Positions 5,931 to 20,001 of a DNA stretch of 20,913 nt are shown here, one piece after another. Location of the stretch: IMG/VR virus record IMGVR_UViG_3300032053_000007; one strand, 5' to 3'. The stretch is from a virus (lineage: Duplodnaviria > Heunggongvirae > Uroviricota > Caudoviricetes). The position numbers and the translations under genes were made by a program. A model generated the notes under the pieces. That model did not search any database, was not told the origin of the DNA, and was given only the letters and a program-made list of their open reading frames with translations. Every line of letters starts with the position of its first letter. Positions within the stretch are counted from its first letter, which is position 1.

Positions 5931-7928
5931 ATGCCATCTAATACATTGGAAAGGAAAAATCTGGCTGGTGCAATAACCCTATTTCTTAAAGACCCAAAAG
6001 GAAAGAAATATATCGATGATTATGTAGCTGGAACAACCGATACAATCATTGTGAACATTGATGAGTTGGCTGTATTTCAAAAAGCAACGGCTGATGAGTT
6101 GATTAGAACAGCATTGAGTTATGGAATGGCGGCTCTTGAAGATGCTGTAGATAGTGAGGTTGTTTATATCGGTTTGAAAACGATTGACAAAACTCATATA
6201 AGCATAACTGGAACTTTTCCACTAAGTTTGATTCATGAAATTGGAGCGGATGATATTGGTCACATTGTTAAAATTCATGGTCTTGTAAATAAAACTGCTA
6301 AGATTCTTCCAATGTATATAGAAGCTGTTTTTAAATGTGTTATGTGCGGGGCAGAATCTCAATCAATTGTGCAAGGAAATCCGTGGACACTTACTAAACC
6401 ATTTCCTAAGTGTGAAGGTTGTGATGACAGAACAACTTGGGAACCTGTGCCACAATTAAGCACATTAGAAGACAGTCAAGAGTTTACTATTCAAGAGGCA
6501 TATGATGATATATCTAGTTCAAAAATTCCAAGACCTATACGATGTATCACATTCAAAAATCATCTTCTAAATTTTGTAAATTGTGGAGATGACATAGAAG
6601 CTATTTGTGTAGTAAATGCTATGTCGGCTTCACAGAAATTTGTCAAAACAAAGTTCAATGTAATCTATTTAGAAGTTCTCTCTGTCAATAAAAGACGTAA
6701 AGACCCAGACGCAATGGTGTTCACATTAGAAGAGGAACTTCAATTAAAGGAAATAGCTAAAGACCCAGAAGTTTATATGAAGATGATTAATTCTCTTGCT
6801 CCTTCGCTCTATGGTCATGAGAATGAGAAGGAAGCTGTATTATTGGCTATTTTTGGTTCCCCAGAGGAAATTCGAGAAGATATAACTATACGTGGGAATA
6901 TTCACATTCTTATGGTTGGCGACCCCGCTACTGCCAAAAGCCAATTGCTTCGTGCGGCTGTAGAGTTGTCGCCCAGAGGAATGTATGCAATGGGTAGAGG
7001 GACAACTGCGGCTGGATTAACTGCGGCACTTCACAAAGATAATGATAGTGGAGAATGGGAAATCTCCGCTGGTGTTTTGGTTCTGGCAGACGAAGGTGTA
7101 GCCGCAATAGATGAAATCGATAAGATGCGTGAAGAGGATAGAGTAAATATTCACGAAGCGATGGAACAACAAACAGTCTCAATTGACAAAGCTGGTTATC
7201 ATGTTCAGTTGAAAGCTAGGACATCATTGATTGCGGCGGCAAATCCAAGTTTAGGAAGATATGACCAATATAAATCGGTGTTTGAAAATCTTCCAAAGTT
7301 TCCGCCAAGCCTATTCAGTAGGTTCGACTTAATTTTTAAAGTGCTTGATATTCCAAACGAACAGATGGATAGAGAAGTTGTGGACCACATCATAGAAAAT
7401 GCCGATAGAAAATCTCCAATAGACAGAAAACTTTTGAGAAAATATATTGCATACTCTAAGAAACTTAAACCCAAACTTTCTAAAGAAGCGGCTGAATCTT
7501 TGAAGAACTATTTTGTTGCTGTAAGGAAAACTTACACAACTGACCAGAAAACCTTCCCCTTTTCATATAGACAATTTGAGGCTTTGAAGCGGTTGACACT
7601 TGCGCGGGCAAGGTCTCTTCTTAAACTTGAAGCTGATGCATCTGATGTAGAATGTGTTAAACGATTGTTCGATGTATTCCTTAAAGACACCGTTGGCAAT
7701 GATGTAACCCAACTCGAAACTGGTCAATCTACATCCTCAATGGACATTCAAAAGATTATGATGGAAGCATTCAAAAGCCACGATATGACAAAGAATGACC
7801 TCAGAAACTTGATGAAATGTGAAGATAATGACAAATTTGAGAAAGCATTCGTAAAACTACAAGGAGAAAACTACATTATGTTGAAGGGTATGGCTCTTAA
7901 CAACCAAGAAGTGTATGGAATACCGTAA
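5931..7928 (+). CDS. mcm: Archaeal-type MCM replicative helicase (665 aa, no intein)
   Basis: Zn finger CVMC...CEGC, Walker A GDPATAKS, GRGTTAAGLTAA, Walker B IDEIDKM, AMEQQTVSIDKAG, AAANP, arginine finger SRFD, sensor-2-like RQFEAL, short C-terminal winged-helix-like tail. Confidence 0.97.
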   Translation: MPSNTLERKNLAGAITLFLKDPKGKKYIDDYVAGTTDTIIVNIDELAVFQKATADELIRTALSYGMAALEDAVDSEVVYIGLKTIDKTHISITGTFPLSLIHEIGADDIGHIVKIHGLVNKTAKILPMYIEAVFKCVMCGAESQSIVQGNPWTLTKPFPKCEGCDDRTTWEPVPQLSTLEDSQEFTIQEAYDDISSSKIPRPIRCITFKNHLLNFVNCGDDIEAICVVNAMSASQKFVKTKFNVIYLEVLSVNKRRKDPDAMVFTLEEELQLKEIAKDPEVYMKMINSLAPSLYGHENEKEAVLLAIFGSPEEIREDITIRGNIHILMVGDPATAKSQLLRAAVELSPRGMYAMGRGTTAAGLTAALHKDNDSGEWEISAGVLVLADEGVAAIDEIDKMREEDRVNIHEAMEQQTVSIDKAGYHVQLKARTSLIAAANPSLGRYDQYKSVFENLPKFPPSLFSRFDLIFKVLDIPNEQMDREVVDHIIENADRKSPIDRKLLRKYIAYSKKLKPKLSKEAAESLKNYFVAVRKTYTTDQKTFPFSYRQFEALKRLTLARARSLLKLEADASDVECVKRLFDVFLKDTVGNDVTQLETGQSTSSMDIQKIMMEAFKSHDMTKNDLRNLMKCEDNDKFEKAFVKLQGENYIMLKGMALNNQEVYGIP

Positions 7929-7938: not shown

Positions 7939-7971
7939 GTTCGTTGCCTCTATTTCTTATAAGGTGTGTTC

Positions 7972-10254
7972 ATGCCTAAGAAAATAATGGATAGGTTAAA
8001 GGAATTTTTTGGTAAATCAGACGAAAGTTGGGATTGGGAGAACTTCCAATCAACTGAGAACTATCCAGTTTCACCTAATCTCATCGATTGGATTATCGGA
8101 CAAGAACATGCCATAACTGAATGCAAACTTTGTATTGATGAATGGGTAAACAAACTAGGTTGGTTGAACGAAAAGAAATGGTGGAAACCATTCGAGATAG
8201 TTGAGAAGCCAAAAAGGGAATTAGCTATAAAGTTTCGTGGTCACAAGATTCATCTGTTCAATTATGGAAAGAAGGAACTCGTCTTCAACCCTAAGCCTTT
8301 ACCGAAAGAAATGTTGCCCTCTGGACCTTTTCTGCTCATGTTAGGAGATGCTGGAACAGGTAAGAGTCTTTTGGGTCGCGCTATGCAGAGTTATATGACA
8401 GACCTTTATCAAAAGAAAGGGATAAAACTATACGATACATGCTCATGGTATAACAAGACTTTGCCTTGTCAACCTAGAATTTCAATTCACCCATCACCAG
8501 AAGGAACAAAGATAATCAAGAAAGCCGCTAAAATGGAAGCTAAGAAGGGCAGATTTGTAAAGTGGGGATTTAAAGCTATAATATTGCTTATGATGAGCAT
8601 AGGGATATTCATTCTAGGCTACATAGGAATTTCTGGACTTACCGATTGGTATTACAACGTAATTTGGACTATGTGGGGAGAGACAGTTCAAGAATTTTTC
8701 CACGGCAATTTCTTACAATATATGGTTCAAGGTTGCATAATGTCGAATATCCAACTTGTGATTTCTGGAATAATGGCATTGTCTATGGGTGGAATGCTTT
8801 ATATCTTTTCAAGATTTATGGGCGGAATGATAGGCGGAAATAAGAAAGGAGTAGGTGGGGCAGAAGCTACTCAAGCACCAAAATTGCTGATTGATAATTC
8901 AAGTGGAATTGCCCCCTTCATTGATGCTACAGGACACAGAAGCGCACAACTCTTCGGTTCAATAGCTTGGGACCCCTATCAGACAGGAGATTTGGGAACG
9001 CCCGAACACCAGAGAGTAACCGCTGGCGATGTTCACAGAGCACACTTAGGAATTCTCTACATAGACGAAATTAAGAATTTAATTGGCGATGAAGCTATAA
9101 CTTTGTTGACTGTTCTGGAAGATGGACAACTGCCAGTTGCTATGAGAGGCTCACTAAATGGCGGTGACACAGCGGCAATGGCTGTAGCAACAGAACCAAT
9201 TCCATGTATGAATTTCTTGATAGCCGCTGGAAATTTGGATAGTTTGCCACACATTCATTATGCTCTGTTAGACCGCATTCATGGCTACGGTAAAATGGTC
9301 TATATGTCGAACGATATGCCAAACATACCAGAGAATCGCCGAAAATATGTTCAATTTATTTCTCAAGAAGTCAAACGTTTTCATCTATTGCCTCTCAGTA
9401 GGGACGCTTGCATAGCGGTGATTGAGGAAGCAATTAGGAAAAGTGGAAAGAACAATACTATAACGTGTAAGTTTAGACCTATGATTGGCACGATAAAAAC
9501 TGCAAGTGTTCTGGCTCAGAATGAGGGGCTAAAGATAGTTGAAAGAAAACACGTTAATGATGCCTTAAATGAACATTGTAAGTCAATTGCTTTACAAGTT
9601 ATGGAGAAACAGATTGAAAACCATATTATATATAATACATTAATTGACCCAACAGAAGAACCAAAAGTAGGACAAATCCACGGTCTAGCTGTAAGCACAA
9701 TTAATGTAGAAGGAACAGATATGGTAGGTTCGGTTTTGACAATTCGAGCATCATGTTTGCAAAAAACTGGTCTAAAATCTCTTGGATACTTTACCGTTAC
9801 GGGCGTTGCAACAAAAGATTCATCTTATGTTCAACATTCAATAGCAAAAGTTCGGCATGTTATCCTTCAACTATATGGTATTGATGTGGAACAAGAATGC
9901 TATACACATGTTGACTTCGCTCAGGAACATGGCGTTGAAGGTCCTAGTGCTGGAATAACGATGACTCTGGCTCTAGCTTCGGTATTGCTTCAAAAGAAGA
10001 TACGACAGGATGTAGCGGTCACGGGCGAAATAAACATAGCAAATGGTGATTTGAAAGCGGGCGAATCTGGAATAGAAGTTACTTCTATTGGCGGCGCACA
10101 CGAGAAAATTTTAGCGGCTCAGAGAATGGGATTTAAGAAGGTTTGTATTCCTCAAAGAAACTATGAGAAAAACATTAATCCATCTGACTATACATTGAAA
10201 GTAGTTGGGTGTAAAACCATACAAGACTATATACGGGAGTGCTTTGAACCGTAA
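7972..10254 (+). CDS. lonB: Membrane-anchored ATP-dependent Lon protease (archaeal LonB architecture)
   Basis: LIDWIIGQEHA, Walker A GDAGTGKS (8344-8367), two hydrophobic segments (~8554-8640, ~8746-8835) inside the AAA+ domain, AGDVHRAHLGILYIDEI (Walker B), ALLDRI. Ser-Lys dyad in GPSAG (Ser 9946) and GGAHEK (Lys 10105). ATG 7972 is preferred over GTG 7966 because of the AGGTG RBS spacing. Confidence 0.95.
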   Translation: MPKKIMDRLKEFFGKSDESWDWENFQSTENYPVSPNLIDWIIGQEHAITECKLCIDEWVNKLGWLNEKKWWKPFEIVEKPKRELAIKFRGHKIHLFNYGKKELVFNPKPLPKEMLPSGPFLLMLGDAGTGKSLLGRAMQSYMTDLYQKKGIKLYDTCSWYNKTLPCQPRISIHPSPEGTKIIKKAAKMEAKKGRFVKWGFKAIILLMMSIGIFILGYIGISGLTDWYYNVIWTMWGETVQEFFHGNFLQYMVQGCIMSNIQLVISGIMALSMGGMLYIFSRFMGGMIGGNKKGVGGAEATQAPKLLIDNSSGIAPFIDATGHRSAQLFGSIAWDPYQTGDLGTPEHQRVTAGDVHRAHLGILYIDEIKNLIGDEAITLLTVLEDGQLPVAMRGSLNGGDTAAMAVATEPIPCMNFLIAAGNLDSLPHIHYALLDRIHGYGKMVYMSNDMPNIPENRRKYVQFISQEVKRFHLLPLSRDACIAVIEEAIRKSGKNNTITCKFRPMIGTIKTASVLAQNEGLKIVERKHVNDALNEHCKSIALQVMEKQIENHIIYNTLIDPTEEPKVGQIHGLAVSTINVEGTDMVGSVLTIRASCLQKTGLKSLGYFTVTGVATKDSSYVQHSIAKVRHVILQLYGIDVEQECYTHVDFAQEHGVEGPSAGITMTLALASVLLQKKIRQDVAVTGEINIANGDLKAGESGIEVTSIGGAHEKILAAQRMGFKKVCIPQRNYEKNINPSDYTLKVVGCKTIQDYIRECFEP

Positions 10255-10264
10255 CATTTAAATA
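10249..10264 (+). promoter_or_regulatory. BRE-TATA promoter of the glycan cluster, overlapping the lon stop codon (CCGTAA-CA-TTTAAATA)
   Basis: TATA starts 41 nt before ATG 10298. Confidence 0.75.
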
Positions 10265-10297
10265 CTTACTCACCTATATTCTTTATGATGTGGTATA

Positions 10298-10915
10298 ATG
10301 AAAGTGCTTGTAATAGACGCTCATCCAGATGATGGTGAATCTGCGGCTGGCGGCGCAATTGTAAGGCTTGTTCAAGAGGGTCATATGGTTACAGAAGTTT
10401 ATTTTGCACCATGTATGGAAGACCCGAAAAACAAAGGTCACATTCAGGACCACGAAGCCGTATGTAAAGCACTTGGAATATCAGAAATAATTTCGTTTCA
10501 ATATGCCCGCGATAGACTAGAGGAACACAAGCAAGATATAAGAAATCAACTCTGGGTTATCAGAGAAAAAATAATGCCCGATTTGGTGCTTTGTCCAACT
10601 GTTCATGATTTTCATCAGGACCACGTAACAATTGCGGAATGTTGTGTTACAATTTTTAGAGATACTTCAACGATTCTAGCCTACGAAGTTTTGCGAAGTT
10701 CAACACCAGATTTCAAACCAAACTATTTCATAATTCTTACAGAAGAGGATGTTAAAAGAAAGTTGGATGCATTAGACCTATATGTTGCACAGAAGAAAGC
10801 TAGACCTTATGCTACAAGTAGAGTAAAATATGAGTCTCATAATAGAATGCGTGGGGTTCAAGCAAAAACAGATTATGCAGAAGCCTTTGAACTTGTATGG
10901 GGTAGAATGAATTGA
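10298..10915 (+). CDS. PIG-L/LmbE-family N-acetyl-sugar deacetylase
   Basis: N-terminal VLVIDAHPDDGE(S)AAGG metal-binding motif and downstream DFHQDH motif; 205 aa. Confidence 0.9.
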   Translation: MKVLVIDAHPDDGESAAGGAIVRLVQEGHMVTEVYFAPCMEDPKNKGHIQDHEAVCKALGISEIISFQYARDRLEEHKQDIRNQLWVIREKIMPDLVLCPTVHDFHQDHVTIAECCVTIFRDTSTILAYEVLRSSTPDFKPNYFIILTEEDVKRKLDALDLYVAQKKARPYATSRVKYESHNRMRGVQAKTDYAEAFELVWGRMN

Positions 10916-11646
10916 CAGTAGTTCTAATAACGGGTGGAACTCAGGGTATAGGAAAAGCAACTGCTATGGCGTTCGCAAGACAGCAAGCAACTGTGATTCT
11001 TAACTATCATTCGAACGATTTAGAAGCGCAGAAAGCAGTAAATGAGATTTATGCCGCAACAAAGATTCATGTAGAAGTAATCAAGGCTGATGTCACAGAC
11101 GAAGCCCAAGTTACCCAAATGATTAATCAAGTTATTAAGTGGTTTGGGCAGATAGATATTCTCATAAATAATGTTGGAATCTTTAAGGATTCAGTCATTT
11201 GGAAAATGCCTAAAGAGGCTTGGGACTCAGTTGTGGACACAAATCTTACAAGTGCATTCCTGTGTACGAAATATGTTATTCCATATATGCGCGAAAAAAG
11301 GTTTGGGAGAATCATAAACATTTCATCAGTTGTCGGACAAACAGGTGCATTTGGCACAAGCAATTATGCGGCTTCAAAAGCTGGATTAATAGGATTCACA
11401 AAGGCAATAGCCAGAGAAGTTGCGCTTTTTGGTATAACAGTAAATTGTGTTGCACTTGGCTATATTGATATTGGAATGGGTCTAAGAATACCTGAAGAAA
11501 TTCATGAAAAAATCAGAACACAGATTCCGATGCAACGTTTCGGTACGGTAGAAGAAGTTGTTTCAACCATAACATTTATAAGTTCGAACAATGCTAGTTA
11601 TATAACAGGACAAGTAATTGCCGTGAACGGTGGATATTATCTATGA
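10912..11646 (+). CDS. Classical SDR, acetoacetyl-CoA / 3-oxoacyl reductase (PhaB/FabG-like)
   Basis: TGGTQGIG cofactor motif, NNVG, NISS, catalytic YAASK, VNCVALGYI. TTG start overlaps the upstream stop (TTGA). Confidence 0.9.
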   Translation: MTVVLITGGTQGIGKATAMAFARQQATVILNYHSNDLEAQKAVNEIYAATKIHVEVIKADVTDEAQVTQMINQVIKWFGQIDILINNVGIFKDSVIWKMPKEAWDSVVDTNLTSAFLCTKYVIPYMREKRFGRIINISSVVGQTGAFGTSNYAASKAGLIGFTKAIAREVALFGITVNCVALGYIDIGMGLRIPEEIHEKIRTQIPMQRFGTVEEVVSTITFISSNNASYITGQVIAVNGGYYL

Positions 11647-12608
11647 TAACGTGCTCTAAGTCAAACATTCATGAAACTGTTAAGATAGGCAATGATGTCA
11701 GGATTGTTTCTGATGACATAACGATTGGCGAAGGTACAGAGATTGGTAATGGTACTACAATCATTGCATATGAGAAACTTGTCATAGGAAAGTTTTGTAA
11801 AATTCGCCCAAATGCACAGTTCAAGGCGCGTTCAATCGAGATAGGAGATTTCTTCTACTCAGATGACCAGCCTCTTCCACTTATAATCGGTGGTGGCGGC
11901 TCAGAAAGACCAACAGCCAGAATCAAAATAGGTAAATGTTGTGTTATGCATGATAGTTTCATAAACGTGTTTATGCCTGTGACGATTGGCGACCACGTTG
12001 GATTGAGTCCAAGTTCCGCGATTTTAACACATGGTTGTTGGCAATCAGTAGTTAAAGGTTACGGAATGAAGATAGGTCCAGTAAAGATAGGTTCAGGCTC
12101 AATAATTGGCTACCGCGCAATAATTTTGCCAAACGTGACAATAGGCGATAATGCAAATGTAGGTGCTGGTGCAGTAGTTACGAAAGACGTTCCAGACGAC
12201 ACGATTGTTGGCGGTGTTCCAGCAAAAGTAATTATGGGTCCACCAAATCACCCGAAGAAACTTACTCAGAAAGAACAAGAAGATATGATTTGGCAAATTA
12301 TGATGCAATACGCCGAATTGCTTAAAGACAAACTTGACGATTTTTCTGTGGAAAGTAGTCCTGAGTTAATCACAATCAAAGGATTCTACAAAGAACCGTT
12401 CGAGATAAGATGCTCAGAATATATGATTGTGATAGAACAGGGAGACAAGTTTATGGCAATAGACGCAATTCATAATAGTTGGTCAGGAGAAGATAGCGAA
12501 ATTTGCGATGACTTGAGAGATTTCTTACGCCATTATGGAATACGAATTCTCTCAAGACATGTAGTTTCAATTAAGTCGAAAATAAGACGAAAATTGGAGA
12601 GTATGTAA
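11643..12608 (+). CDS. Hexapeptide-repeat (left-handed beta-helix) acyltransferase with a ~120-aa C-terminal extension
   Basis: Repeats such as ITIGEGTEIGNGTTI and VTIGDHVGLSP; LTHG; PVKIGSGSIIGYRAIILPNVTIGDNANVGAGAVVTKDVP...VGGVPAK. ATGA overlap with the upstream stop. Confidence 0.9.
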   Translation: MITCSKSNIHETVKIGNDVRIVSDDITIGEGTEIGNGTTIIAYEKLVIGKFCKIRPNAQFKARSIEIGDFFYSDDQPLPLIIGGGGSERPTARIKIGKCCVMHDSFINVFMPVTIGDHVGLSPSSAILTHGCWQSVVKGYGMKIGPVKIGSGSIIGYRAIILPNVTIGDNANVGAGAVVTKDVPDDTIVGGVPAKVIMGPPNHPKKLTQKEQEDMIWQIMMQYAELLKDKLDDFSVESSPELITIKGFYKEPFEIRCSEYMIVIEQGDKFMAIDAIHNSWSGEDSEICDDLRDFLRHYGIRILSRHVVSIKSKIRRKLESM

Positions 12609-14549
12609 ATGGAAGAAACCCAACAAAAATCTGAAACCCCTCAATTCGATAGAGAATGGGAGCGTTTACTTCATAAATTGGACTTCATCCAGAATGAGAC
12701 TGATATTTCAAAGTTTTTGCGCCCTAGAAAACTGGAACTCTCTGAGATAAAACCAATTATGATTATTCGTTCTCCCCGTGACCTTCCAGAAGTTCAGAAA
12801 TGCTTCGACAACCTAAAACAAGTTGACAAACTTTGGATAAAATACTACAATGATGTAGAGGCTCACAAAATTGCCATAGAATGGGTCGCACTTCACCCAG
12901 AGTACACACACATAATTCTCATATCCGATGATGTGTATGTTTCAGAAGACGCACTTAATCTTCTTCTTGATGACATTTGCACATATGACTTTCCAGCAAT
13001 TTCAGGTTGTTCAAATATGTGCGACACCTACAAGACAGGAAGGTTAATGTGTAGTTATTGCGAAAAACAAATAGAACATCCAATAATCAATGTCATTATT
13101 GAACCATTTCCATATTTGGACAAATTTGGCGTAAGAAGTAAGTGTGTCTATCTAGGTAGTATGCCTGAAAACTATGCATTCCTGTCATCCTCTTTTAGAG
13201 AGAAAAATCAGAAGATATTCCAATGTTTCTTTCAAGGACACTCTTTATGCGCTATACGAAGAGACATCTTTGAAAAGCACGGTTGCAAATCCTACATTAT
13301 GCCACACTATGACTCAGACGATTTTGCTTTTGCTGTAGATTTAGCAGAAGATTGTATTCCTCAATTTGCTGACTTGAGAGTTTATATTCCTCATGATGCA
13401 AGATTCCACAAGAATTTATTTGTTGGAGTGAAAGAACCAATTCTTATATTCGAACCGATAGAAGAAAAAAAACAAATAGTAGGTGGTGCTTTGAGCGGAA
13501 TAAAGTGTTTGACATATGTTCCAATTTTGGTTTGTACTCCCTTCAATAATGAAGAGCAATCGATAGACTTATACATCCAAAGTTTACTCAATATTGACTA
13601 TCCAAAAGAAATGATTGATTTAGTCTGGGTCGAAAATGACAGCGTTGACAATACATGGGGAATGCTTCAGAAATACGAGAAGAAAATCAAAAATAAATAC
13701 AACTATCATTCGTTTACACTTGTCAGGCAAGATTACGGATTGAAGAAATTCGGAAAATCTACTGTATCCGACTATATTAATAATAGGGCTGGAAAAAATA
13801 AAGTACAAACTATGACAGATAAAATCGAAAGAGGGAAACGATTATGTAAAGTTTATCATTATTTCTTTGACCAACTGAAACCAGAACACAAGTATATTAT
13901 GTTTCTTTTCGCAGACGTGGTTGTTCCAATACAAACAATCAGGCGGTATCTCGAAGTTTTCAGAGACTATCCTGACGCGGGTTGGGTTGGTGCTGTTCAT
14001 CACAGACGATTCCCACTTCATATGCGTTCAAGACCTGATTCTCCAATTGATGGTTATGGTATTGCTGGTCCTCTGAAAAGAATTGATAGTAAACCATTTG
14101 TCGCTTACGTTGATGATAACTGGATACTTGACAAACAAATGCACGGACAAGTGGTTTTTGAAGTTGGAATGACAGGTCACGTTTGGATGATGAAGCCAGA
14201 AATTTACACAAAAGGTGGAAGAACTGGCATAAACAACGTTGAAATCATTATGCCTTTGATTGAAAAAGTCTGGGAAATGGGATTAAAGGTCTATTGTGCC
14301 AGCGACATTTATCTTCAACATATTTCACTTGATGGAAAAATCTACCGAAGAAATCTTTTTGAAGAACTTGAATGTCACGCTAATCTTCTAAAAGATGAGA
14401 AGAAACAAAGTGAAGAACTAAATCGTATTAAACTTCTAAAAGATGAGAAGAAACAAAGTGAAACACCATGTCCTATTAAACTTCCAGATGATGGGAAGAA
14501 ACAAGGTGAGGTACACAAAAAAGAATCATGTCAAGGACCTCATCCGTAG
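12609..14549 (+). CDS. Two-domain GT-A-fold (GT2-like) glycosyltransferase with a repetitive charged tail
   Basis: Domain 1: YTHIILISDD, LCAIRRDIF, SDDFAFAVDL, ADLRVYIPH. Domain 2: ILVCTPFNNEEQSI...IDYPK...VWVENDSVDNT, YIMFLFADVVV, GLKVYCASDIYLQH. Starts immediately after the upstream stop. Confidence 0.75.
   Translation: MEETQQKSETPQFDREWERLLHKLDFIQNETDISKFLRPRKLELSEIKPIMIIRSPRDLPEVQKCFDNLKQVDKLWIKYYNDVEAHKIAIEWVALHPEYTHIILISDDVYVSEDALNLLLDDICTYDFPAISGCSNMCDTYKTGRLMCSYCEKQIEHPIINVIIEPFPYLDKFGVRSKCVYLGSMPENYAFLSSSFREKNQKIFQCFFQGHSLCAIRRDIFEKHGCKSYIMPHYDSDDFAFAVDLAEDCIPQFADLRVYIPHDARFHKNLFVGVKEPILIFEPIEEKKQIVGGALSGIKCLTYVPILVCTPFNNEEQSIDLYIQSLLNIDYPKEMIDLVWVENDSVDNTWGMLQKYEKKIKNKYNYHSFTLVRQDYGLKKFGKSTVSDYINNRAGKNKVQTMTDKIERGKRLCKVYHYFFDQLKPEHKYIMFLFADVVVPIQTIRRYLEVFRDYPDAGWVGAVHHRRFPLHMRSRPDSPIDGYGIAGPLKRIDSKPFVAYVDDNWILDKQMHGQVVFEVGMTGHVWMMKPEIYTKGGRTGINNVEIIMPLIEKVWEMGLKVYCASDIYLQHISLDGKIYRRNLFEELECHANLLKDEKKQSEELNRIKLLKDEKKQSETPCPIKLPDDGKKQGEVHKKESCQGPHP
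14385..14510 (+). repeat. Three in-frame units at 48-nt period; 30-nt core CTTCTAAAAGATGAGAAGAAACAAAGTGAA
   Basis: Identical cores at 14385-14414 and 14433-14462; third core at 14481-14510 matches 24/30. Encodes LLKDEKKQSE twice and LPDDGKKQGE. Confidence 0.9.
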
Positions 14550-14579
14550 ATGAATATTATAGGTATAAGGTGATAAAAA

Positions 14580-15677
14580 ATGAAAAAAACCTTAACAAGA
14601 AAAGATATAGACATAGCAAAACTAAACTACTATCTGAAAAATATTATGCGACTTCTAAATCCACCAATGGGAATTATTCCACCAGCAATCACGGAATACA
14701 ATACATATGCTCACACAATCAACAAACCAATACCATATAATTCTACCAGCGACTATGCTGGAAAATACATGGATATGATTCGTTTAGCCGTTTTAAGAAG
14801 TCTTAATGAGTGGAATCCAAACCATGAAGTTGATAGAGTAGGAATATTCCTCTCAGGCGGAATAGATTCAGCACTACTCTTGAAATTCACCGCTGACATT
14901 TTAGGACCAGACCACGTTAGAGGCTACAATATGACTTGGGGTGAAGACAAAGACGAAACAGAATACGCTAAAGCCGTCTGCGATGCCACAGGGGTAAAAT
15001 TGATTCAGAGATTTATGCCATATGAAGAAGTTCCAAAACTGATAAAGGAATCTTGTCAACTGATGCGAGCACCTTCATGGTGTCCACAAGTGCTTTTCAT
15101 TGCAAAGGTTCTCGAAGAGGACGGCACAAACAAAGCGTTCATAGGTCTAGGTCTTGATGCAATAACAGGTGGAGAAACAAATCTCTGGGCAGTTCAACAT
15201 GATGTTGTAAAATTCGAAGCAGAAGAAACCAAAACACTTAACTTACAAAGAGATTACATTTGGGGTAATGTCTATCATTGTCACGGTAGAGTTGATTTGA
15301 AAATTCCATATTTGAAACACCCAGACATAGTAGCATGGATGCGTAGTCTTCCAATATGCCACAAAGTTGAGGGACCAATAACAAAATTGCGGATTCGAAA
15401 AGAAATAGAACAGTTCGGCATATTGCCAGCAATTAACAGGGATTATGGTAAGATGGTTGGTACAAAAAGAGGATTCGGTCCTAACTGGGAAACATATTTC
15501 CAGCACGGTTACAGAAAATTTGCACATGAACATGACCCAGCACTCAAAGATTTTAACATGGAACGATTTGAAACATATAAGAAGTGGAAGACAAGTTTCT
15601 GGTATGAATTAACCTACTCTTCGCTATACTTTTTCCTAGAACTATTAGATGAAGGGGCATTCACAGTTGAAGAATGA
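14580..15677 (+). CDS. Asparagine-synthetase-like ATP-dependent amide ligase (synthetase domain only)
   Basis: PP-loop FLSGGIDS (SGGIDS 14853-14870); KIPYL.HP.IVAWMRSLP..HK...TK..IR and KRGF motifs of the Asn_synthase C-terminal domain. No N-terminal Cys/Ntn glutaminase domain. AGGTGA RBS at 14568-14573. Confidence 0.8.
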   Translation: MKKTLTRKDIDIAKLNYYLKNIMRLLNPPMGIIPPAITEYNTYAHTINKPIPYNSTSDYAGKYMDMIRLAVLRSLNEWNPNHEVDRVGIFLSGGIDSALLLKFTADILGPDHVRGYNMTWGEDKDETEYAKAVCDATGVKLIQRFMPYEEVPKLIKESCQLMRAPSWCPQVLFIAKVLEEDGTNKAFIGLGLDAITGGETNLWAVQHDVVKFEAEETKTLNLQRDYIWGNVYHCHGRVDLKIPYLKHPDIVAWMRSLPICHKVEGPITKLRIRKEIEQFGILPAINRDYGKMVGTKRGFGPNWETYFQHGYRKFAHEHDPALKDFNMERFETYKKWKTSFWYELTYSSLYFFLELLDEGAFTVEE

Positions 15678-16746
15678 GTTTGCAAAGATTCCTCTGGCAT
15701 TCGTGATGGGCACTAGACCACAGTATATGAAGGTCATTGCTGTACTTAATCAACTAAAGTACGAAAGTATTATAGTTGATACAGGACAACATTATGACTT
15801 GAACATGTCCCAAATTTTTTTAAGTCAGTTGAAATTTCCACATGTCGTAAATCTCGAAGTTGGCTCAGACACACATGGCGCACAAACAGCAAAAATAATC
15901 GAAGGTACAGAGAAGATTCTGATGAATATGCAACCCGCAATGGTTGTCGTTGTTGGAGATACAAACACAACTATGGGCGCGGCACTTGCGGCAGTTAAAC
16001 TGAAGATTCCAGTTGCTCATATAGAGGCTGGTTGTCGTGCATATGATAGAAATATAATGGAAGAAATAAACAGGGTAGTTGCCGACTCAGTTTCAAGTCT
16101 TTTGTTTACAGCAAGTTTACGCCATTGGACAAATTTGATTACCGAAAGGCAATTTGGAAAGGCTTACAATGTTGGCGACATACTGTTGGACGTTCTCACG
16201 ATGCATTTCTCTAAAATAGAGAAGGTCAAGACTTTGGATAATTTGGGTATTTCATCGCCTTACTATGTTGCCACTATTCATAGAGATTGGAATGTTGATA
16301 ATCCAGCGACATTTAAAGGAATACTTGAAGCATTAAGTAGTAGTCCTATTCCAGTTATTTATCCAATTCATCCGCGCTCAAGAAAAATGCTCAGAGAAAA
16401 CAAACTTGAAAAATATATAGGAAAGAATATTCAGATAATCGACCCCGTTTCCTATTATGACATGATAAACTTAGAACGATTCTCTAATGCAGTAATCACA
16501 GACTCAGGTGGCATTCAAAGAGAAGCGTTCTATCTTCATAAACTTTGCATCGCATTGAAGACCAGTACCCCAGAATGGCAAGAACTTTCTGACTGTAAAG
16601 CGACAATTCTGACTGGAACAAAATATGAGACAATCTCTGAGATTCTGAATAATCTACCGAGTTTCCCGAAAAACGTGAAGCCGCTTTATGGAAATGGAAC
16701 AGCCTCAGAACAAATCGCAAAAATCATAGGTGATTACATTGGATAA
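15649..16746 (+). CDS. wecB: Non-hydrolysing UDP-N-acetylglucosamine-type 2-epimerase (WecB/WbpI family)
   Basis: GTRPQYMK, DTGQHYD, VVGDTNTT, HIEAGCR, EEINR, ATIHR, YPIHPR, TDSGGIQREA, LYGNG.ASEQI. True start could be TTG 15667. Confidence 0.93.
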   Translation: MKGHSQLKNEFAKIPLAFVMGTRPQYMKVIAVLNQLKYESIIVDTGQHYDLNMSQIFLSQLKFPHVVNLEVGSDTHGAQTAKIIEGTEKILMNMQPAMVVVVGDTNTTMGAALAAVKLKIPVAHIEAGCRAYDRNIMEEINRVVADSVSSLLFTASLRHWTNLITERQFGKAYNVGDILLDVLTMHFSKIEKVKTLDNLGISSPYYVATIHRDWNVDNPATFKGILEALSSSPIPVIYPIHPRSRKMLRENKLEKYIGKNIQIIDPVSYYDMINLERFSNAVITDSGGIQREAFYLHKLCIALKTSTPEWQELSDCKATILTGTKYETISEILNNLPSFPKNVKPLYGNGTASEQIAKIIGDYIG

Positions 16747-17593
16747 CATTCTTGTAGTTGGATTAGGCGAAGTTGGTCGTCCAATATTTGAACTGCTTAA
16801 AATGCAGAGGATATGGAAAGTCTTCGGATATGACAGAGACCAAAACAAAACTATTCATGACTTGGATGAAATTCCTAATACTATCTACTCCCTTCATATT
16901 TGTATTTCGTGCTCAGACGCAAAGAAATTCATAAACATAGTCTGCGACTTAGTAAGCGAATTCGAGCCGAAACTTGTGATAATTCATAGTACAGTTCCGC
17001 CTCTAACAACAAGAATGATTTATGAAGAAATTCACCGCGAATGTCCGTACGTAGCGCACTCGCCTGTGCGCGGGGTACACTCCCAGATGCTTGAAGACAT
17101 TAAGACCTACACAAAGTTTGTCGGTGGCGCGACCCCAGAAGGCGGCAAAGAGGCATTTAATCATCTTATTAAGGCGGGGTTTAAATGCGAACTTATGCGT
17201 AATTCAACTAACACGGAATTGGCAAAGTTGTATGAGACAAGTTACGCCGCTACAATGATTGCAATGTTTCAGGAGATGCATAGAATTTCCAAAGAATTTG
17301 GTGTTGATTTCTCTGATATTCTTGACATCTTCATCGATACACATATTCACAGACTCGACAGACCTTTATATCACCCGTCAGTCATCGGTGGACATTGTTT
17401 GATGCCTAACATTGTATTGTTGAACCAGAGTGTAAACAGCGCGCTATTCAGGTGGGTCGAACGGTCAAATGAACTTAGGATAGCTGAGATGGAAGACCCA
17501 GAAATAGCCAAAGAAGTTGCCAAATGCAAGAAGAAATTCGATATAATGCGAAAGTGGTCAATAAAGGTACTAGGGAAAGAGGGGAAAATATGA
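16739..17593 (+). CDS. Short UDP-glucose/GDP-mannose/UDP-ManNAc 6-dehydrogenase family protein (no C-terminal UDP-binding domain)
   Basis: Rossmann VVGLGEVG, IHSTVPP, HSPVRG, TELAKLYET, catalytic GGHCL. TTG 16739 preferred (AGGTGA RBS at 16728-16733); the ORF track starts at GTG 16730. Confidence 0.85.
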   Translation: MDNILVVGLGEVGRPIFELLKMQRIWKVFGYDRDQNKTIHDLDEIPNTIYSLHICISCSDAKKFINIVCDLVSEFEPKLVIIHSTVPPLTTRMIYEEIHRECPYVAHSPVRGVHSQMLEDIKTYTKFVGGATPEGGKEAFNHLIKAGFKCELMRNSTNTELAKLYETSYAATMIAMFQEMHRISKEFGVDFSDILDIFIDTHIHRLDRPLYHPSVIGGHCLMPNIVLLNQSVNSALFRWVERSNELRIAEMEDPEIAKEVAKCKKKFDIMRKWSIKVLGKEGKI

Positions 17594-18768
17594 CAAAAAA
17601 ACTTTGTATTGTGGCATGGTTTGATTGCCGCGATTATTTCCAATGGTTTGTTGCTTTGAATAAATATGCGTCAAAACTCGACATTGTAGTGTCATCAATA
17701 AACGCTTCGCCAGTTCATAGAAAAGTTTATAATGATTTTGTCAATGACCCATATTGGAACCCTTTGAAAGAAGCTGATTATATTTACGCTTATGCAACAA
17801 GACGGTCATCAAGATATGAACCAACTGGTGTTAGTTGGTGGAGTTTACCGATTTTTGCAAAACCGTTTATGAAACCCGAAGCTAAAATGCTCGCTCAATG
17901 GGATGATGAATGGTTATGGTTATTTAATCCTAACGGAAGTTGGTGGGATTTAAAGTTAATGCCAAATCCAGACAATCATGGTGGACCAGAACAGTTCTTC
18001 AAAGATACAAAAATACTTGAAATACCAGATGGAATTATTAAGGTGACAGATAATCCGTTGTTTGAAAAATACACTACAAAACCAATATTCAAAATATTAT
18101 TGCCTCATCTTTTTAGATATGGTGTAAACAGGTATAATGAAAATCATAAAGGAAAAAATCTGGCAATAATGTATCATTCCGCTAGAAGCCATAATGTTCG
18201 TTCTGTTCTTGAAAATGTTATAAGACCTAAAAATTATGCGGTAACAGTATTTAATGGTAGTATCAAACAAGAATTTGTTAATGCTTTTCGTGCGCGAGAA
18301 AAACTTCCAGTTAATAGCGAAGTATATGTACGAATGGAATATGTAGCATATACAGATTTGCTTTGGAGAAATTGTGATGTGGGTCTGGATAATAGCGATG
18401 GTTACGGCGGATGGTCAAGATTTGGTATGGAATGTGCAATAAGTTGTGTACCCTGCGTTGGTTCAAGTAATTCTGTTCATGATATGTTTCCAGAACTTTA
18501 TACAGAGGTAAATGATTTTGCTAAACAGATTGAACTTATTGAGCGGCTTAGAACAGACCCAAAATTCTACCATGAAGTGGTTGTAGCTGGGCGTAAGCGG
18601 CTTTTAGATTTGCTTGATGATGAAAAATTATGTAAGCAGTTTCTTGATTGTTTCGAGAAAGTTGGCACATCAAAAGGCAAAGTTCCGTTACAACATTTCC
18701 AACCAGAAGATACGCGCTACCATCAAGATATACATCAGGCTAGTCCACGTCCACCAAAGTCGAAGTGA
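17590..18768 (+). CDS. Probable GT-B-fold (GT4-like) glycosyltransferase, divergent
   Basis: C-terminal CDVGLDNSDGYGGWSRFGMECAISCVPCVGS...NDFAKQIELIERL...YHEVVVAGRKR resembles the GT4 nucleotide-sugar-binding region. ATG 17590 overlaps the upstream stop (ATGA), so it is preferred over 17524. Confidence 0.55.
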   Translation: MTKKLCIVAWFDCRDYFQWFVALNKYASKLDIVVSSINASPVHRKVYNDFVNDPYWNPLKEADYIYAYATRRSSRYEPTGVSWWSLPIFAKPFMKPEAKMLAQWDDEWLWLFNPNGSWWDLKLMPNPDNHGGPEQFFKDTKILEIPDGIIKVTDNPLFEKYTTKPIFKILLPHLFRYGVNRYNENHKGKNLAIMYHSARSHNVRSVLENVIRPKNYAVTVFNGSIKQEFVNAFRAREKLPVNSEVYVRMEYVAYTDLLWRNCDVGLDNSDGYGGWSRFGMECAISCVPCVGSSNSVHDMFPELYTEVNDFAKQIELIERLRTDPKFYHEVVVAGRKRLLDLLDDEKLCKQFLDCFEKVGTSKGKVPLQHFQPEDTRYHQDIHQASPRPPKSK

Positions 18769-18772
18769 TAAA

Positions 18773-19054
18773 ATGTTAGTCAAAATTGATGAAATTCGTG
18801 ATGACTTTGACTTGTATTATAGTAGATTCAAAGCGGCTAAACGGCGTGTAGAAGAATTAGCTGAAGACATCTCAAAAAATGGTTTGAAAAATCCGATAGA
18901 AATTCATCGAGTAAAAGATTACTATGAAGTTGTAGAAGGTGTTCACAGATTGAGAGCTTGCAAAATGTTAGGCTGGAAGGAAGTGGAATGCATAGTTCGG
19001 AACTACGGACCACATGCAACCCCATTTCCAAGAGATAGATATAAATGCGAATAA
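18773..19054 (+). CDS. Stand-alone ParB/Sulfiredoxin (ParB N-terminal) domain protein, 93 aa
   Basis: VEELAEDISKNGLKNPIEI...YEVVEGVHRLRACKMLGWKEVECIV is the typical ParB/Srx core with the GxxR motif. No HTH follows. ATG 18773 lies 4 nt after the upstream stop. Confidence 0.88.
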   Translation: MLVKIDEIRDDFDLYYSRFKAAKRRVEELAEDISKNGLKNPIEIHRVKDYYEVVEGVHRLRACKMLGWKEVECIVRNYGPHATPFPRDRYKCE

Positions 19055-19614
19055 TTTGTGTGATACCAGTTTACAATTGCGGAGATATGCTACTCGAAAC
19101 GCTAAGAAGTGTGGATGGAAAAGTTGATGAGATTCATTGTTACGATACTTGTTGGCTGATTAACCCGTCAACTTTGCATTCTTCTGACGATACGAAACAA
19201 ATAATAGAAAATTTCTCTAAAACCTCTAAGACGAAAGCAGACTATATTATGTTATCGTCCCCAATGAGTGAACAAAAATGCAGAGATGCTTCTATAGAAA
19301 ATGTGGCAGAAGGAGATTGGGTTTTTGCTATAGATTCTGACGAAGTAGTTATACGATGGGATGATAATGTTCGTTCTATTCTTGAGAACACCATAGAGAA
19401 AGGATTCTTTTGGTATATGGATAGTCATATGTTTCCAGTTTGCCGCCTCTTTAGAAAGGAAAAATGTATGAAATATTTCACTTGTAGAGTTTGTGATTCT
19501 AAAGGCAAGATATTGCAAGCCCTTTACATGATTAACATTAATGTACGTCATGATTTCAACAAACGAAAACGCGAGAAACACGCTTCGGAAACTGCTCAGA
19601 GACCACATCCATAA
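19045..19614 (+). CDS. Small GT2-family glycosyltransferase (189 aa)
   Basis: IICVIPVYNCGDMLLETLRSV...DEIHCYD, DWVFAIDSDE (DxD motif), RLFR. Confidence 0.82.
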   Translation: MRIICVIPVYNCGDMLLETLRSVDGKVDEIHCYDTCWLINPSTLHSSDDTKQIIENFSKTSKTKADYIMLSSPMSEQKCRDASIENVAEGDWVFAIDSDEVVIRWDDNVRSILENTIEKGFFWYMDSHMFPVCRLFRKEKCMKYFTCRVCDSKGKILQALYMININVRHDFNKRKREKHASETAQRPHP

Positions 19615-19624: not shown

Positions 19625-19656
19625 CTACTTCTACTTTATCTTTCTTGGTGTTGATT

Positions 19657-20001
19657 ATGTCAGAAGACGATTATTGCCCAGAGGAAGAAGAAGCAAAAGA
19701 GAAAGCTATTGGTCCGAAGTGTGATGTTTGTGGTAAATCAACTGAAAGTTTGTATCCTGTTCTTGTGAAACGTGAACGTAGAGGAATGTATGAGATGGTT
19801 CAAATTTATCTTTGCGCTTTTCATATTTTAGAAAGAATGGAAGAGGATGTCTTGCCCCCACCGCCCGAAGATGGAGAGAAAAGCGAAAACAATATTTGGA
19901 ATGAATTAATGGGTCCAGATGAGGAAGAAGAAGAAGAGGATGAAGATGGCGATGGTGGTTGGTCTGGTGTAATTGACCATATAGGACAAAGTTTTGGTTA
20001 A
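19657..20001 (+). CDS. Hypothetical small Zn-finger-like protein (CxxC...CxxH) with an acidic tail
   Basis: CDVCGK...YLCAFH, then PPPP and DEEEEEEDEDGDGG. It has its own promoter and RBS. Confidence 0.7.
   Translation: MSEDDYCPEEEEAKEKAIGPKCDVCGKSTESLYPVLVKRERRGMYEMVQIYLCAFHILERMEEDVLPPPPEDGEKSENNIWNELMGPDEEEEEEDEDGDGGWSGVIDHIGQSFG

Follow-up and report, generated by a model that had tools for sequence, protein, structure and literature searches.

The stretch of DNA studied here, 20,913 nucleotides from the IMG/VR virus record IMGVR_UViG_3300032053_000007 (Caudoviricetes) and hereafter called the window, carries at positions 10298-19614 a block of ten genes, all on the plus strand, as are nearly all open reading frames (ORFs) of the window. 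An initial annotation made from the sequence alone had taken this block for a glycan synthesis and tailoring operon on a probable archaeal virus or extrachromosomal element. The glycan-synthesis reading fits every domain that we identify, as well as the sub-modules conserved among relatives, and on sequence comparison the block is best read as this genome's version of a hypervariable glycan island, which would occupy a group-wide site extending from lonB or mcm to the gene of a trypsin-like protease. The comparison covers 37 related loci, namely 34 metagenome loci from peat, wetland and lake sediments recovered with a profile of the GT-B glycosyltransferase gene of the island, one viral record (G001) and two contigs of an archaeal metagenome-assembled genome (MAG). 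All of these were ascertained through the GT-B gene except G001, which alone was found independently, through its MCM helicase gene.

Layout and promoter of the operon

The ten genes follow one another at junctions of -4, -4, 0, +30, -29, -17, -4, +4 and -10 nt, figures that presume coupled starts for the GT-B gene (at 17590, in an ATGA overlap) and for the ParB-fold gene (at 18773), and these coordinates confirm the co-orientation, the tight junctions and the single 30-nt gap described at the outset. Upstream lies the promoter region (10252-10297, plus strand), where the stop codon of lonB is merged with a B recognition element (BRE)/TATA-like box, TAACATTTAAATA, followed by a short leader. 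The 13-base motif TAANMTTTAAATA, which spans the stop codon of the upstream gene together with the TATA-like box, occurs in three exact copies on the plus strand (at 7926, 10252 and 19612), that is, ahead of lonB, ahead of the first operon gene and past the last one. When up to one mismatch is allowed, five matches are found on the two strands, against 1.2 expected from shuffled sequences, and none falls on the plus strand within the operon, in agreement with the single upstream BRE-TATA promoter that had been proposed (motif at 10252). The 30-nt spacer (14550-14579, plus strand) holds an AGGTGA ribosome-binding site and no match to the shared promoter motif. An internal promoter in this spacer was considered and rejected, as the motif is absent, a TATA-like run lies too near the ATG, and the gap itself is missing in two of the related loci (L024 and L040), where the matching junction is 2 nt or overlapping. 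With the motif flanking the block and absent from the 30-nt gap, the ten genes are read from their sequence as a single transcription unit of the genome's stereotyped promoter class.

Several large proteins encoded in the window end in proline directly ahead of the stop codon (…GPHP, …RPHP, …GIP and …FEP; window 14535-14549, 19600-19614, 7920-7928 and 10246-10254), because their last codons belong to the upstream sequence of the next promoter, and the consensus of the GT-B family likewise terminates in …PHP. The 646-aa double glycosyltransferase of the operon has such a PHP tail with no promoter behind it, which may be the scar of a cassette insertion.

Predicted enzymes of the operon

Profile searches with hidden Markov models and structure comparison recovered the epimerase, deacetylase, reductase, acyltransferase, amide ligase and ParB/Srx domain that the initial annotation had named. 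The marker gene of the island family encodes a GT4-like glycosyltransferase of the GT-B fold (392 aa; 17590-18768, plus strand), recognized by its predicted structure; no Pfam, NCBIfam or PHROG match was obtained, and its 39 homologues are all metagenomic and carry no Pfam domain. The AlphaFold2 (AF2) model (predicted local distance difference test, pLDDT, 91; predicted template modelling score, pTM, 0.87) gives VIA Z scores of 19-21.7 over 295-319 residues to more than ten GT4 enzymes, led by BshA (21.7), PglH (21.3) and PimA (20.7) over about 310 residues. Both domains of the fold are matched and the protein is a predicted GT-B glycosyltransferase, with an invariant E281 within a 'MECA..P.VG' motif. 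By fold, its neighbours among viral proteins are group-1 transferases from uncultured tailed phages, from giant viruses and from two archaeal viruses, His1 (whose ORF31 is among the fold matches) and a betalipothrixvirus. The true orthologue in G001 is a 348-aa ORF found by tblastn, and pairwise BLAST of the window transferases against the other G001 transferases (648, 442 and 360 aa) detected no similarity.

The first gene of the operon encodes a PIG-L/LmbE (CE14-type) de-N-acetylase (205 aa; 10298-10915, plus strand), which passes the family cut-off (PF02585, 56.6 bits; cut-off 28.2) and contains the metal/catalytic motifs AHPDD (within DAHPDDGE) and HxxH (as HQDH), both retained in the G001 orthologue at 55% identity. 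Its nearest solved structures in the PDB are archaeal diacetylchitobiose deacetylases, an LmbE-related protein and BshB, and its best NCBIfam match is BshB1 (53.1 bits; cut-off 182.5), below the equivalog level. It is followed by a FabG/PhaB-like short-chain reductase (244 aa; 10912-11646, plus strand; adh_short_C2, 217 bits), which matches TIGR01830 (278 bits), PRK12824 (269.3 bits; cut-off 269), an acetoacetyl-CoA reductase model (258 bits) and the FabG-like phrog_3142, and which we infer to be a putative supplier of a 3-hydroxyacyl thioester. The third product is a hexapeptide (left-handed beta-helix) acyltransferase (321 aa; 11643-12608, plus strand; Hexapep) with a conserved C-terminal extension of about 110 aa, matched by NeuD/PglB/VioB and maltose O-acetyltransferase models and, in the PDB, by maltose and galactoside acetyltransferases (E 1e-16).

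That BshA is the best structural match of the GT-B protein (Z 21.7), and that the deacetylase finds BshB1 as its best NCBIfam match and BshB among its PDB matches, could point to a low-molecular-weight or lipid glycoconjugate as the product of the island. A GT4 enzyme, a PIG-L enzyme and a ligase form the logic of the bacillithiol and mycothiol pathways (BshA/BshB, MshA/MshB) and of the glycosylphosphatidylinositol (GPI)-type pathway to a glucosamine-bearing lipid, and the order found here mirrors those pathways. However, we give such a product little credence: the Z scores for BshA, PglH, PimA and sucrose-phosphate synthase lie within 1 unit of each other, with no sequence match to BshA at equivalog level, the deacetylase scores 53 bits against the 182 of the BshB1 cut-off, and each island carries 3-6 further transferase domains, rapidly exchanged, which fit an oligosaccharide.

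A second group of three genes would form a uronate branch. The first of them encodes a stand-alone AsnB-type synthetase domain (365 aa; 14580-15677, plus strand; PF00733), a PP-loop ATP pyrophosphatase with a putative amide-forming function whose SGGxDS loop (here SGGIDS) is invariant across its family. In VIA comparisons, its AF2 model (pLDDT 88.6) is closest to TsnB9 (Z 23.3), human ASNS (23.1), CarA (20.9), beta-lactam synthetase (19.9) and AsnB (19.8), the top matches aligning over 268-304 residues and the remaining PP-loop enzymes scoring Z <=11, and Foldseek matches it to AsnB-class domains with E values of 1e-9 to 1e-8. The protein thus has the PP-loop motif and synthetase fold of the AsnB class but not its glutaminase domain: no GATase Pfam match was found, only about 85 residues precede the PP-loop, and the N-terminal nucleophile (Ntn) glutaminase domain is absent. 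Its family comprises 16 clusters of 341-376 aa among 5.8 billion proteins and stands isolated, with scores falling from 349 to 53 bits at full-length AsnB, and the nearest AsnB proteins (at most 53 bits) bear PF13522/PF13537. Assignment as an acetamidino-forming amidotransferase of the WbpG/PseA type was considered and rejected; since no such NCBIfam match is listed and the fold is that of the AsnB class, carboxylate amidation is the preferred activity.

The next gene, in a 29-nt overlap with the synthetase gene that is conserved in L024, encodes the non-hydrolysing UDP-N-acetylglucosamine (UDP-GlcNAc) 2-epimerase WecB (365 aa; 15649-16746, plus strand; PF02350, 274 bits). The curated model TIGR00236 matches it at 230.2 bits against a cut-off of 210.15 over residues 16-360 of 365, whereas the hydrolysing NeuC model reaches 66.6 bits against a cut-off of 235.9, and by this full-length family match WecB is a predicted non-hydrolysing epimerase.

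The third gene of the group encodes a short dehydrogenase of the UDP-glucose dehydrogenase (UGDH) superfamily (287 aa; 16730-17593, plus strand), which matches PF03721 and PF00984 only. The 6-dehydrogenase of the initial annotation holds for the Rossmann domain (VVGLGEVG, residues 9-16) and for the central domain with its catalytic Cys; across 27 family members GxGxxG, K166, C223 (GGHCxxPN) and N227 are invariant. It does not hold for the remainder of the protein, a short form that stops at 287 aa without the UDP-binding C-terminal domain (about 100-130 aa, PF03720), and in agreement its PDB and NCBIfam alignments end near position 286-300 of models with 413-418 positions. Scores fall well short of the family cut-offs (TIGR03026, 79.6 against 189.8 bits; NF040825, 49.8 against 750), and as the protein lies under the WecC/UGDH cut-offs we do not class it as a WecC. 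Its best PDB match is 4r16, a UDP-N-acetylmannosaminuronate (UDP-ManNAcA) dehydrogenase, over residues 80-249, and its family has 1575 matches, the best 150 of the 1575 being almost all 240-295 aa long. The 392-aa ORF downstream was considered as the split-off C-terminal domain of this enzyme and ruled out, as it folds as a complete GT-B protein. Among its relatives, P0154 and P0177 carry a LAGLIDADG intein just past the catalytic-Cys region (near residue 232-235), and some family members are fused to a hexapeptide transferase.

The remaining transferases are predicted to be of GT-A type. The double glycosyltransferase (646 aa; 12609-14549, plus strand) consists of an N domain (about 12729-13478), a C domain (about 13491-14408) and a low-complexity tail ending in PHP and the stop codon. 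The C domain is GT2/Anp1-like (Pfam, residues 306-439), whereas Pfam and PDB sequence searches with the N-half gave noise only. The N domain is GT-A-like with an SDD motif, the invariant DD standing behind an EYTH motif; hhalign of the N-half against the GT-A C-half gave a match (78%, E 1.8e-5) from the DD motif through the terminal His, its neighbours in a language-model atlas are viral proteins of about 220 aa, some of them GT2/Anp1, and it is probably a GT-A domain. The four glycosyltransferase domains in three genes that had been counted therefore stand as a count, with weaker support for this N-half. In relatives the two halves are separate genes or are fused to the GT-B gene, which is joined to one or both GT-A domains in L005, L018, L021 and L032. 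Similarity to relatives stops near residue 600, and the unshared tail (window 14370-14530) is of low complexity with the direct repeat LLKDEKKQSE present twice.

The small GT2-type (GT-A) glycosyltransferase (189 aa; 19045-19614, plus strand; PF00535, 28.5 bits, cut-off 23.3) is encoded by the last gene of the operon, whose PHP-stop end is merged with the next promoter (motif at 19612), and has orthologues in L003, L005, L006, L007 and L008. Ahead of it lies a gene for a minimal ParB/Srx-fold domain (93 aa; 18773-19054, plus strand), which matches PF02195 at 37.5 bits over model residues 15-81, has a GxHR motif and finds ParB, Noc, Spo0J and sulfiredoxin as its nearest PDB entries. A ParB partition protein is not indicated, as only the N-terminal domain is present and the window contains no parA. 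The gene occurs in the window, L003 and L005 only, each time flanked by the GT-B gene and the small GT2 gene, and is an optional cassette.

The island across a group of archaeal-type viruses

Wherever a locus is long enough for the neighbouring genes to be seen, the island comes after mcm or lonB, and on contigs that extend far enough it ends at a small acidic gene and a trypsin-like protease gene. The smallest island (L014) has 4 genes in 3.8 kb, encoding the GT-B protein, PIG-L, the long acyltransferase and an epimerase/dehydratase of the extended short-chain dehydrogenase/reductase (SDR) type, and the largest (G001) has 13 genes in about 10 kb. Variable content comprises group-1 transferases (GT1s), GNAT and hexapeptide acyltransferases, 4,6-dehydratases, DegT aminotransferases, RmlD-like reductases, a GDSL esterase and a polysaccharide pyruvyl transferase, and DNA alignments place the island breakpoints at gene borders. 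L003, the closest relative, with an MCM 92% identical to that of the window, is collinear with it until the PIG-L stop codon, carries an inserted pyruvyl-transferase gene (L003:7389-8333; PF04230, 60 bits) between PIG-L and the reductase, and is without window 12541-17590 (double glycosyltransferase, synthetase, WecB and dehydrogenase), the alignment resuming exactly at the GT-B start; judged by their genes, two viruses with nearly the same backbone would carry differently decorated glycans. Identity ranks relative to the window are discordant, with LonB at 92% in L005 and 83% in L003 and the GT-B protein at 56% in L005 and 90% in L003. In L004, 447 bp are added between the dehydrogenase and GT-B genes.

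Certain gene sets are kept together across the group. PIG-L and the long acyltransferase occur jointly in 9 loci, PIG-L occurs alone in 3 (2 of them cut by the contig end), the long form never occurs alone, and 25 loci have neither; GT-B adjoins PIG-L in 8 loci, and the reductase adjoins a hexapeptide acyltransferase in 7 of the 9 loci that have it. The synthetase-WecB-dehydrogenase block is shared by the window, L009, L024 and L040, and stands behind the double glycosyltransferase in the window, L024 and L040, the L009 contig beginning inside the synthetase gene. The full eight-gene set is found in three viruses (window, L024 and L040) whose MCM proteins are 43-45% identical, in three different orders, and this changing gene order of kept sets argues for functional coupling over mere inheritance.

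The left border of the island in the window is the gene of a LonB-type membrane protease (7966-10254, plus strand; Lon_C and LonB lid, with two hydrophobic helices), which also stands ahead of the island in G001, L003, L005, L007, L014, L017, L024, L028 and L030; other left flanks are MCM and a giant fibre-like DUF2341 protein. The MCM/Lon flank named in the initial annotation is thus found, while its downstream 'small virus-like genes' turn out to be an acidic zinc-ribbon-like gene and a protease gene. The former encodes a small Cys-rich protein (19645-20001, plus strand) with its own promoter, a zinc-ribbon-like core (CxxC…C.FH) and a very acidic tail, and borders the island on the right in L003, L005, L007, L010, L023 and L028; the latter encodes the trypsin-like protease (Trypsin_2; 20050 onwards, plus strand, open at the window end, 20913). 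The two genes come after the island in L005, L007, L010 and L028, as does the protease gene in G001 and L014. At the other end of the window, a giant 5'-open ORF (2-5857, at least 1951 aa) has two DUF2341 domains, and its product is a candidate fibre or adhesin and a candidate glycan acceptor. Shorter DUF2341 homologues lie upstream of mcm in L003, L005, L006, L008, L021 and G001, in the last together with LamG.

The viral nature of the group is supported by G001, the one relative retrieved by an MCM scan of IMG/VR viral contigs; single-protein scans of viral contigs with WecB and GT-B gave no match. This record of 112,412 bp has direct terminal repeats, is called 100% complete by IMG/VR, and carries in order PolB, MCM, LonB, the sugar island and the trypsin-like protease. 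A 570-aa ORF matches Terminase_6N above cut-off and a search of G001 for Phage_capsid (PF05065) gave no match, so that the label head-tailed follows from the terminase match alone. Against 50,697 deposited virus genomes (INPHARED), MCM matches archaeal viruses only, at identities of at most 32%, and GT-B has no match. A GT-B profile scan of one genome per species across about 185,000 prokaryotic species found the gene in a single one, on a 2.1-kb contig of a 1.3-Mb archaeal MAG (G002), and a direct search of that MAG revealed a second GT-B copy on an 18.9-kb contig with a viral backbone, MCM being followed by the island. The two MAG contigs are C9 (L040; GC content 31.7%) and C188 (L037/L041). 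In the 40 nearest relatives of the MAG (0.3-1.3 Mb) GT-B is absent even with a more sensitive profile, and its presence in one MAG only, on virus-like contigs, makes a recent host origin look unlikely.

If the block were instead a normal chromosomal locus for glycosylation or the S-layer in a small-genome archaeon, misread as viral, this would account for the binning of two related contigs in a 1.3-Mb archaeal MAG and for the presence of MCM and LonB, which are cellular genes as well. We nonetheless regard this reading as very improbable, as the MAG contigs are virus-like, with a viral backbone in which MCM precedes the island, the 40 genomes nearest to the MAG are without the marker GT-B, G001, a 112-kb record, has terminal repeats and a terminase, and neither the window nor any related locus of the 37 contains a housekeeping gene. 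Housekeeping flanks, AglB or a flippase, and near-identical synteny in cellular genomes, which would mark a chromosomal locus, were not seen. The viral or extrachromosomal origin put forward initially is thus supported by the terminal repeats and terminase of G001, by the archaeal-virus MCM matches and by the near-absence of GT-B from cellular genomes, and on these results the block would belong to a large head-tailed virus, as yet uncultivated, whose replication genes and promoters are of archaeal type. As to the host, the two virus-group contigs in the MAG could reflect mis-binning or a small-genome archaeal host, and most atlas neighbours of the short dehydrogenase bear the label Bathyarchaeota; both are weak leads.

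In L008 (6032-9094) and L028 (3919-6903 and 6925-9999), mcm, and in L028 also lonB, are about 1 kb longer than in the window, and the alignment of the window protein breaks into two segments, at about residue 333/334 for MCM and 317-321 for LonB; the extra segments are probably inteins in the ATPase sites. Downstream of the island in L040 lies a LAGLIDADG/intein-containing ORF (L040:13786-15045).

The location of the island in a replication module (PolB, MCM) and its ParB-fold domain would suit DNA hypermodification, in which the transferases glycosylate modified viral bases against host nucleases. Structural comparison also matches the GT-B protein to the alpha- and beta-glucosyltransferases of T4, enzymes of the same fold (Z 17.8 and 15.8), and phage DNA can bear poly-arabinosyl chains begun by such enzymes (bioRxiv 10.1101/2025.06.16.659550). 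Furthermore, L021 and L032 have compact thymidylate-synthase-like genes directly after the island WecB (L021:11433-12173 and L032:16335-17105; PF00303, 38.8 bits), and sugar-bearing pyrimidines are known to arise by way of a thymidylate-synthase-family enzyme (bioRxiv 10.1101/2025.06.16.659550). However, the complete G001 has a 13-gene island and no thymidylate-synthase homologue, which makes DNA glycosylation unlikely, and neither the window nor any locus besides L021 and L032 has a thymidylate-synthase-like gene. The L021 copy, to which the L032 copy is 44% identical, keeps the PPC catalytic Cys and has Asn, the dUMP-type residue, at the base-specificity position, so it is probably an ordinary dTMP synthase. 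N-acyl exchange, uronate amidation, pyruvylation and 4-6 transferases per island also exceed any known DNA sugar, and GT4 enzymes match the GT-B protein better than do the DNA transferases. We therefore hold base glycosylation to be quite improbable, and see as slim a chance that the island builds complex acylated, amidated sugar chains on viral DNA or nucleotide precursors rather than on proteins, which if true would exceed every known hypermodification in complexity and have no precedent among archaeal viruses.

Proposed glycan, its target and known systems

These data lead us to favour, as the fairly probable function of the operon, a stepwise cytoplasmic glycan synthesis, most likely on virion proteins, in a cassette-swapped viral island. 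All ten products are soluble. Neither the operon nor any related island codes for a polytopic membrane protein, and their proteins show at most one marginal hydrophobic segment (only LonB having two helices); the enzymes should therefore act in the cytoplasm, and their substrate must be a cytoplasmic acceptor or host lipid-linked intermediates. The known substrates of PIG-L enzymes are GlcNAc glycosides and not UDP-GlcNAc, in line with the PDB matches here, and this preference, together with the recurring GT-B/PIG-L/acyltransferase unit, suggests GlcNAc transfer followed by de-N-acetylation and re-acylation. The GT-B enzyme would place an N-acetylhexosamine on the acceptor, PIG-L would strip the N-acetyl group from the acceptor-bound glycoside, and the long hexapeptide acyltransferase would re-acylate the freed amine with a 3-hydroxyacyl thioester that the FabG/PhaB-like reductase would supply, for example 3-hydroxybutyryl-CoA from acetoacetyl-CoA of the mevalonate pathway. 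N-acyl exchange of a similar kind occurs in the mycothiol, bacillithiol, GPI and teicoplanin pathways. In the uronate branch, WecB would produce UDP-N-acetylmannosamine (UDP-ManNAc), the short Cys-dependent dehydrogenase would oxidize this or a related sugar to a uronic acid, and the synthetase would adenylate the uronate carboxylate and then couple it to ammonia or an amino acid through an amide bond, in the manner of ManNAcA6Thr. Attachment of the resulting sugars would fall to the double GT-A protein and the small GT2, and cassette exchange at gene borders would give related viruses differing glycans. Virion proteins such as fibres or capsid decoration are favoured as the target because clusters of this kind are known from giant viruses that decorate their fibrils and because the DUF2341 protein is encoded upstream.

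Several points weigh against this reading. The operon shares its promoter class with mcm and lonB, which is not obviously a late or structural class, and it sits in the replication region. The proposed substrates, acceptor and activities are predictions from enzyme families and gene linkage. The loci were picked through GT-B, so that its apparent universality is partly circular, and the co-occurrence counts given above ignore kinship among the loci. The acyltransferase is nearest in sequence to O-acetyltransferases, and O-acylation is therefore possible. Finally, the dehydrogenase, besides being far under the family cut-offs and without a UDP-binding domain, has an invariant Asn (N227) at the C+4 position, where UGDHs have a catalytic Asp (Asp264), and it is found also in islands without WecB; an enzyme this atypical, present without WecB, leaves the uronic-acid step uncertain.

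The initial annotation had also remarked on the lack of a flippase, polymerase or oligosaccharyltransferase, and this extends to all related islands: none encodes any of the three, and AglB, flippase and dolichol-phosphate-priming transferase, which would indicate an agl locus, find no Pfam match in them. The same absence is compatible with host-surface conversion, where the viral enzymes would feed a host dolichol-linked pathway, the missing proteins being dispensable if host-supplied, and the host flippase and AglB would export an altered S-layer, pilus or archaellum glycan, which could block superinfection or rival viruses. A promoter class shared with mcm and lonB would suit an early function, and receptor-masking glycans are also expected to be hypervariable. 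However, known phage seroconversion systems (Gtr type) include membrane proteins, and there are none here; we know of no counterpart of the GT-B, PIG-L and acyltransferase core in described agl pathways; and the scan of about 185,000 species genomes found GT-B in only 1, on virus-like contigs, the 40 genomes related to that MAG being without it. Amidation of ManNAcA-type sugars with amino acids is characteristic of archaeal N-glycans (PMC2952790), which would fit a host glycan, yet the closest precedent for such clusters decorates virions (PMC10117803). On balance we consider host-surface conversion unlikely, though a serious rival, and retain virion proteins as the preferred target.

Among known systems, a GT4 enzyme, a PIG-L (CE14) enzyme and acyl or aminoacyl transfer are combined in mycothiol and bacillithiol synthesis (MshA/B, BshA/B), in the GPI pathway (PIG-A/PIG-L) and in teicoplanin N-acyl exchange. 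The island resembles these in having a GT-B protein, a PIG-L protein and an amine-loading enzyme, with the three genes linked across the virus group, and differs in that the re-acylating enzyme is a left-handed beta-helix transferase with a reductase partner and, with respect to bacillithiol, in BshB-model scores far under the cut-offs. It is like O-antigen and capsule loci, and like the hyperplastic regions of phages, in its fixed site, conserved flanks and serotype-like cassette replacement, but unlike O-antigen and capsule loci it is viral and has no Wzx, Wzy or ABC exporter.

Virion glycosylation operons are known from mycobacteriophages and single glycosyltransferases from archaeal viruses (STIV A197, SSV1 and His1 ORF31). 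As in those prokaryotic viruses, the transferases here are soluble and would fit the modification of capsid or tail proteins in the cytoplasm. In contrast to their one to few transferases without sugar-nucleotide synthesis or tailoring, the islands have 4-13 genes, which add an epimerase, a dehydrogenase, a deacetylase, acyltransferases and an amide synthetase. To our knowledge, archaeal viruses have been reported to encode at most single glycosyltransferases or to have host-glycosylated proteins. The literature that we searched describes no multi-gene sugar-synthesis and tailoring cluster for archaeal viruses, and a paper on the Bathyarchaeia virome mentions one glycosyltransferase.

The N-glycans of Methanococcus are made by a WecB/WecC route and contain the amino-acid-amidated ManNAcA6Thr, the threonine-attaching enzyme of which was unidentified as of a 2010 review (PMC2952790). 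The window is comparable in its WecB above the curated cut-off, in the translationally coupled UGDH-type enzyme, and in an adjoining predicted amide-forming enzyme that fits a 6-carboxamide or 6-aminoacyl product. Unlike the Methanococcus enzyme, its dehydrogenase is without the UDP-binding domain and fails the WecC models, and AglB and dolichol steps are missing.

The closest parallel is found in the Megavirinae, where clade-specific clusters of 6-33 glycan genes glycosylate the virion fibrils (Notaro et al. 2022, PMC10117803). In both cases a viral genome carries clustered nucleotide-sugar enzymes and transferases that differ between related viruses: pathways for rare 'bacterial' amino sugars and several glycosyltransferases are virus-encoded, and no host secretory pathway is used. 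The systems differ in that the Megavirinae belong to the Nucleocytoviricota, whereas the present virus is of archaeal type with a head-tailed, terminase-encoding relative, and in that the island lies at one fixed locus and is exchanged cassette-wise even at 92% MCM identity. Its core is also distinct, consisting of the Pfam-less GT-B, PIG-L, the long acyltransferase, the short dehydrogenase and the stand-alone AsnB-type synthetase. Mimivirus fibril glycans contain pyruvylated GlcNAc, and one relative of the window (L003) has a polysaccharide pyruvyl-transferase gene.

If the proposed reading is true, large archaeal viruses would run their own glycan 'serotyping', changed by cassette exchange at a fixed locus. 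This would add an independent third example to bacterial O-antigen loci and the fibril glycans of giant viruses, and would point to strong selection on surface sugars where viruses clash with hosts or with other viruses in anoxic sediments and peat. The Pfam-invisible GT-B, the stand-alone AsnB-type synthetase and the widespread short UGDH-like dehydrogenase are enzyme families without a studied member, which may help to make rare amidated or N-acylated sugars. Overall, virus-encoded glycan clusters as such are already known, and what is new here with respect to the systems compared is the combination of cassette exchange at a fixed site with a Pfam-invisible GT-B, a stand-alone synthetase and a short dehydrogenase.

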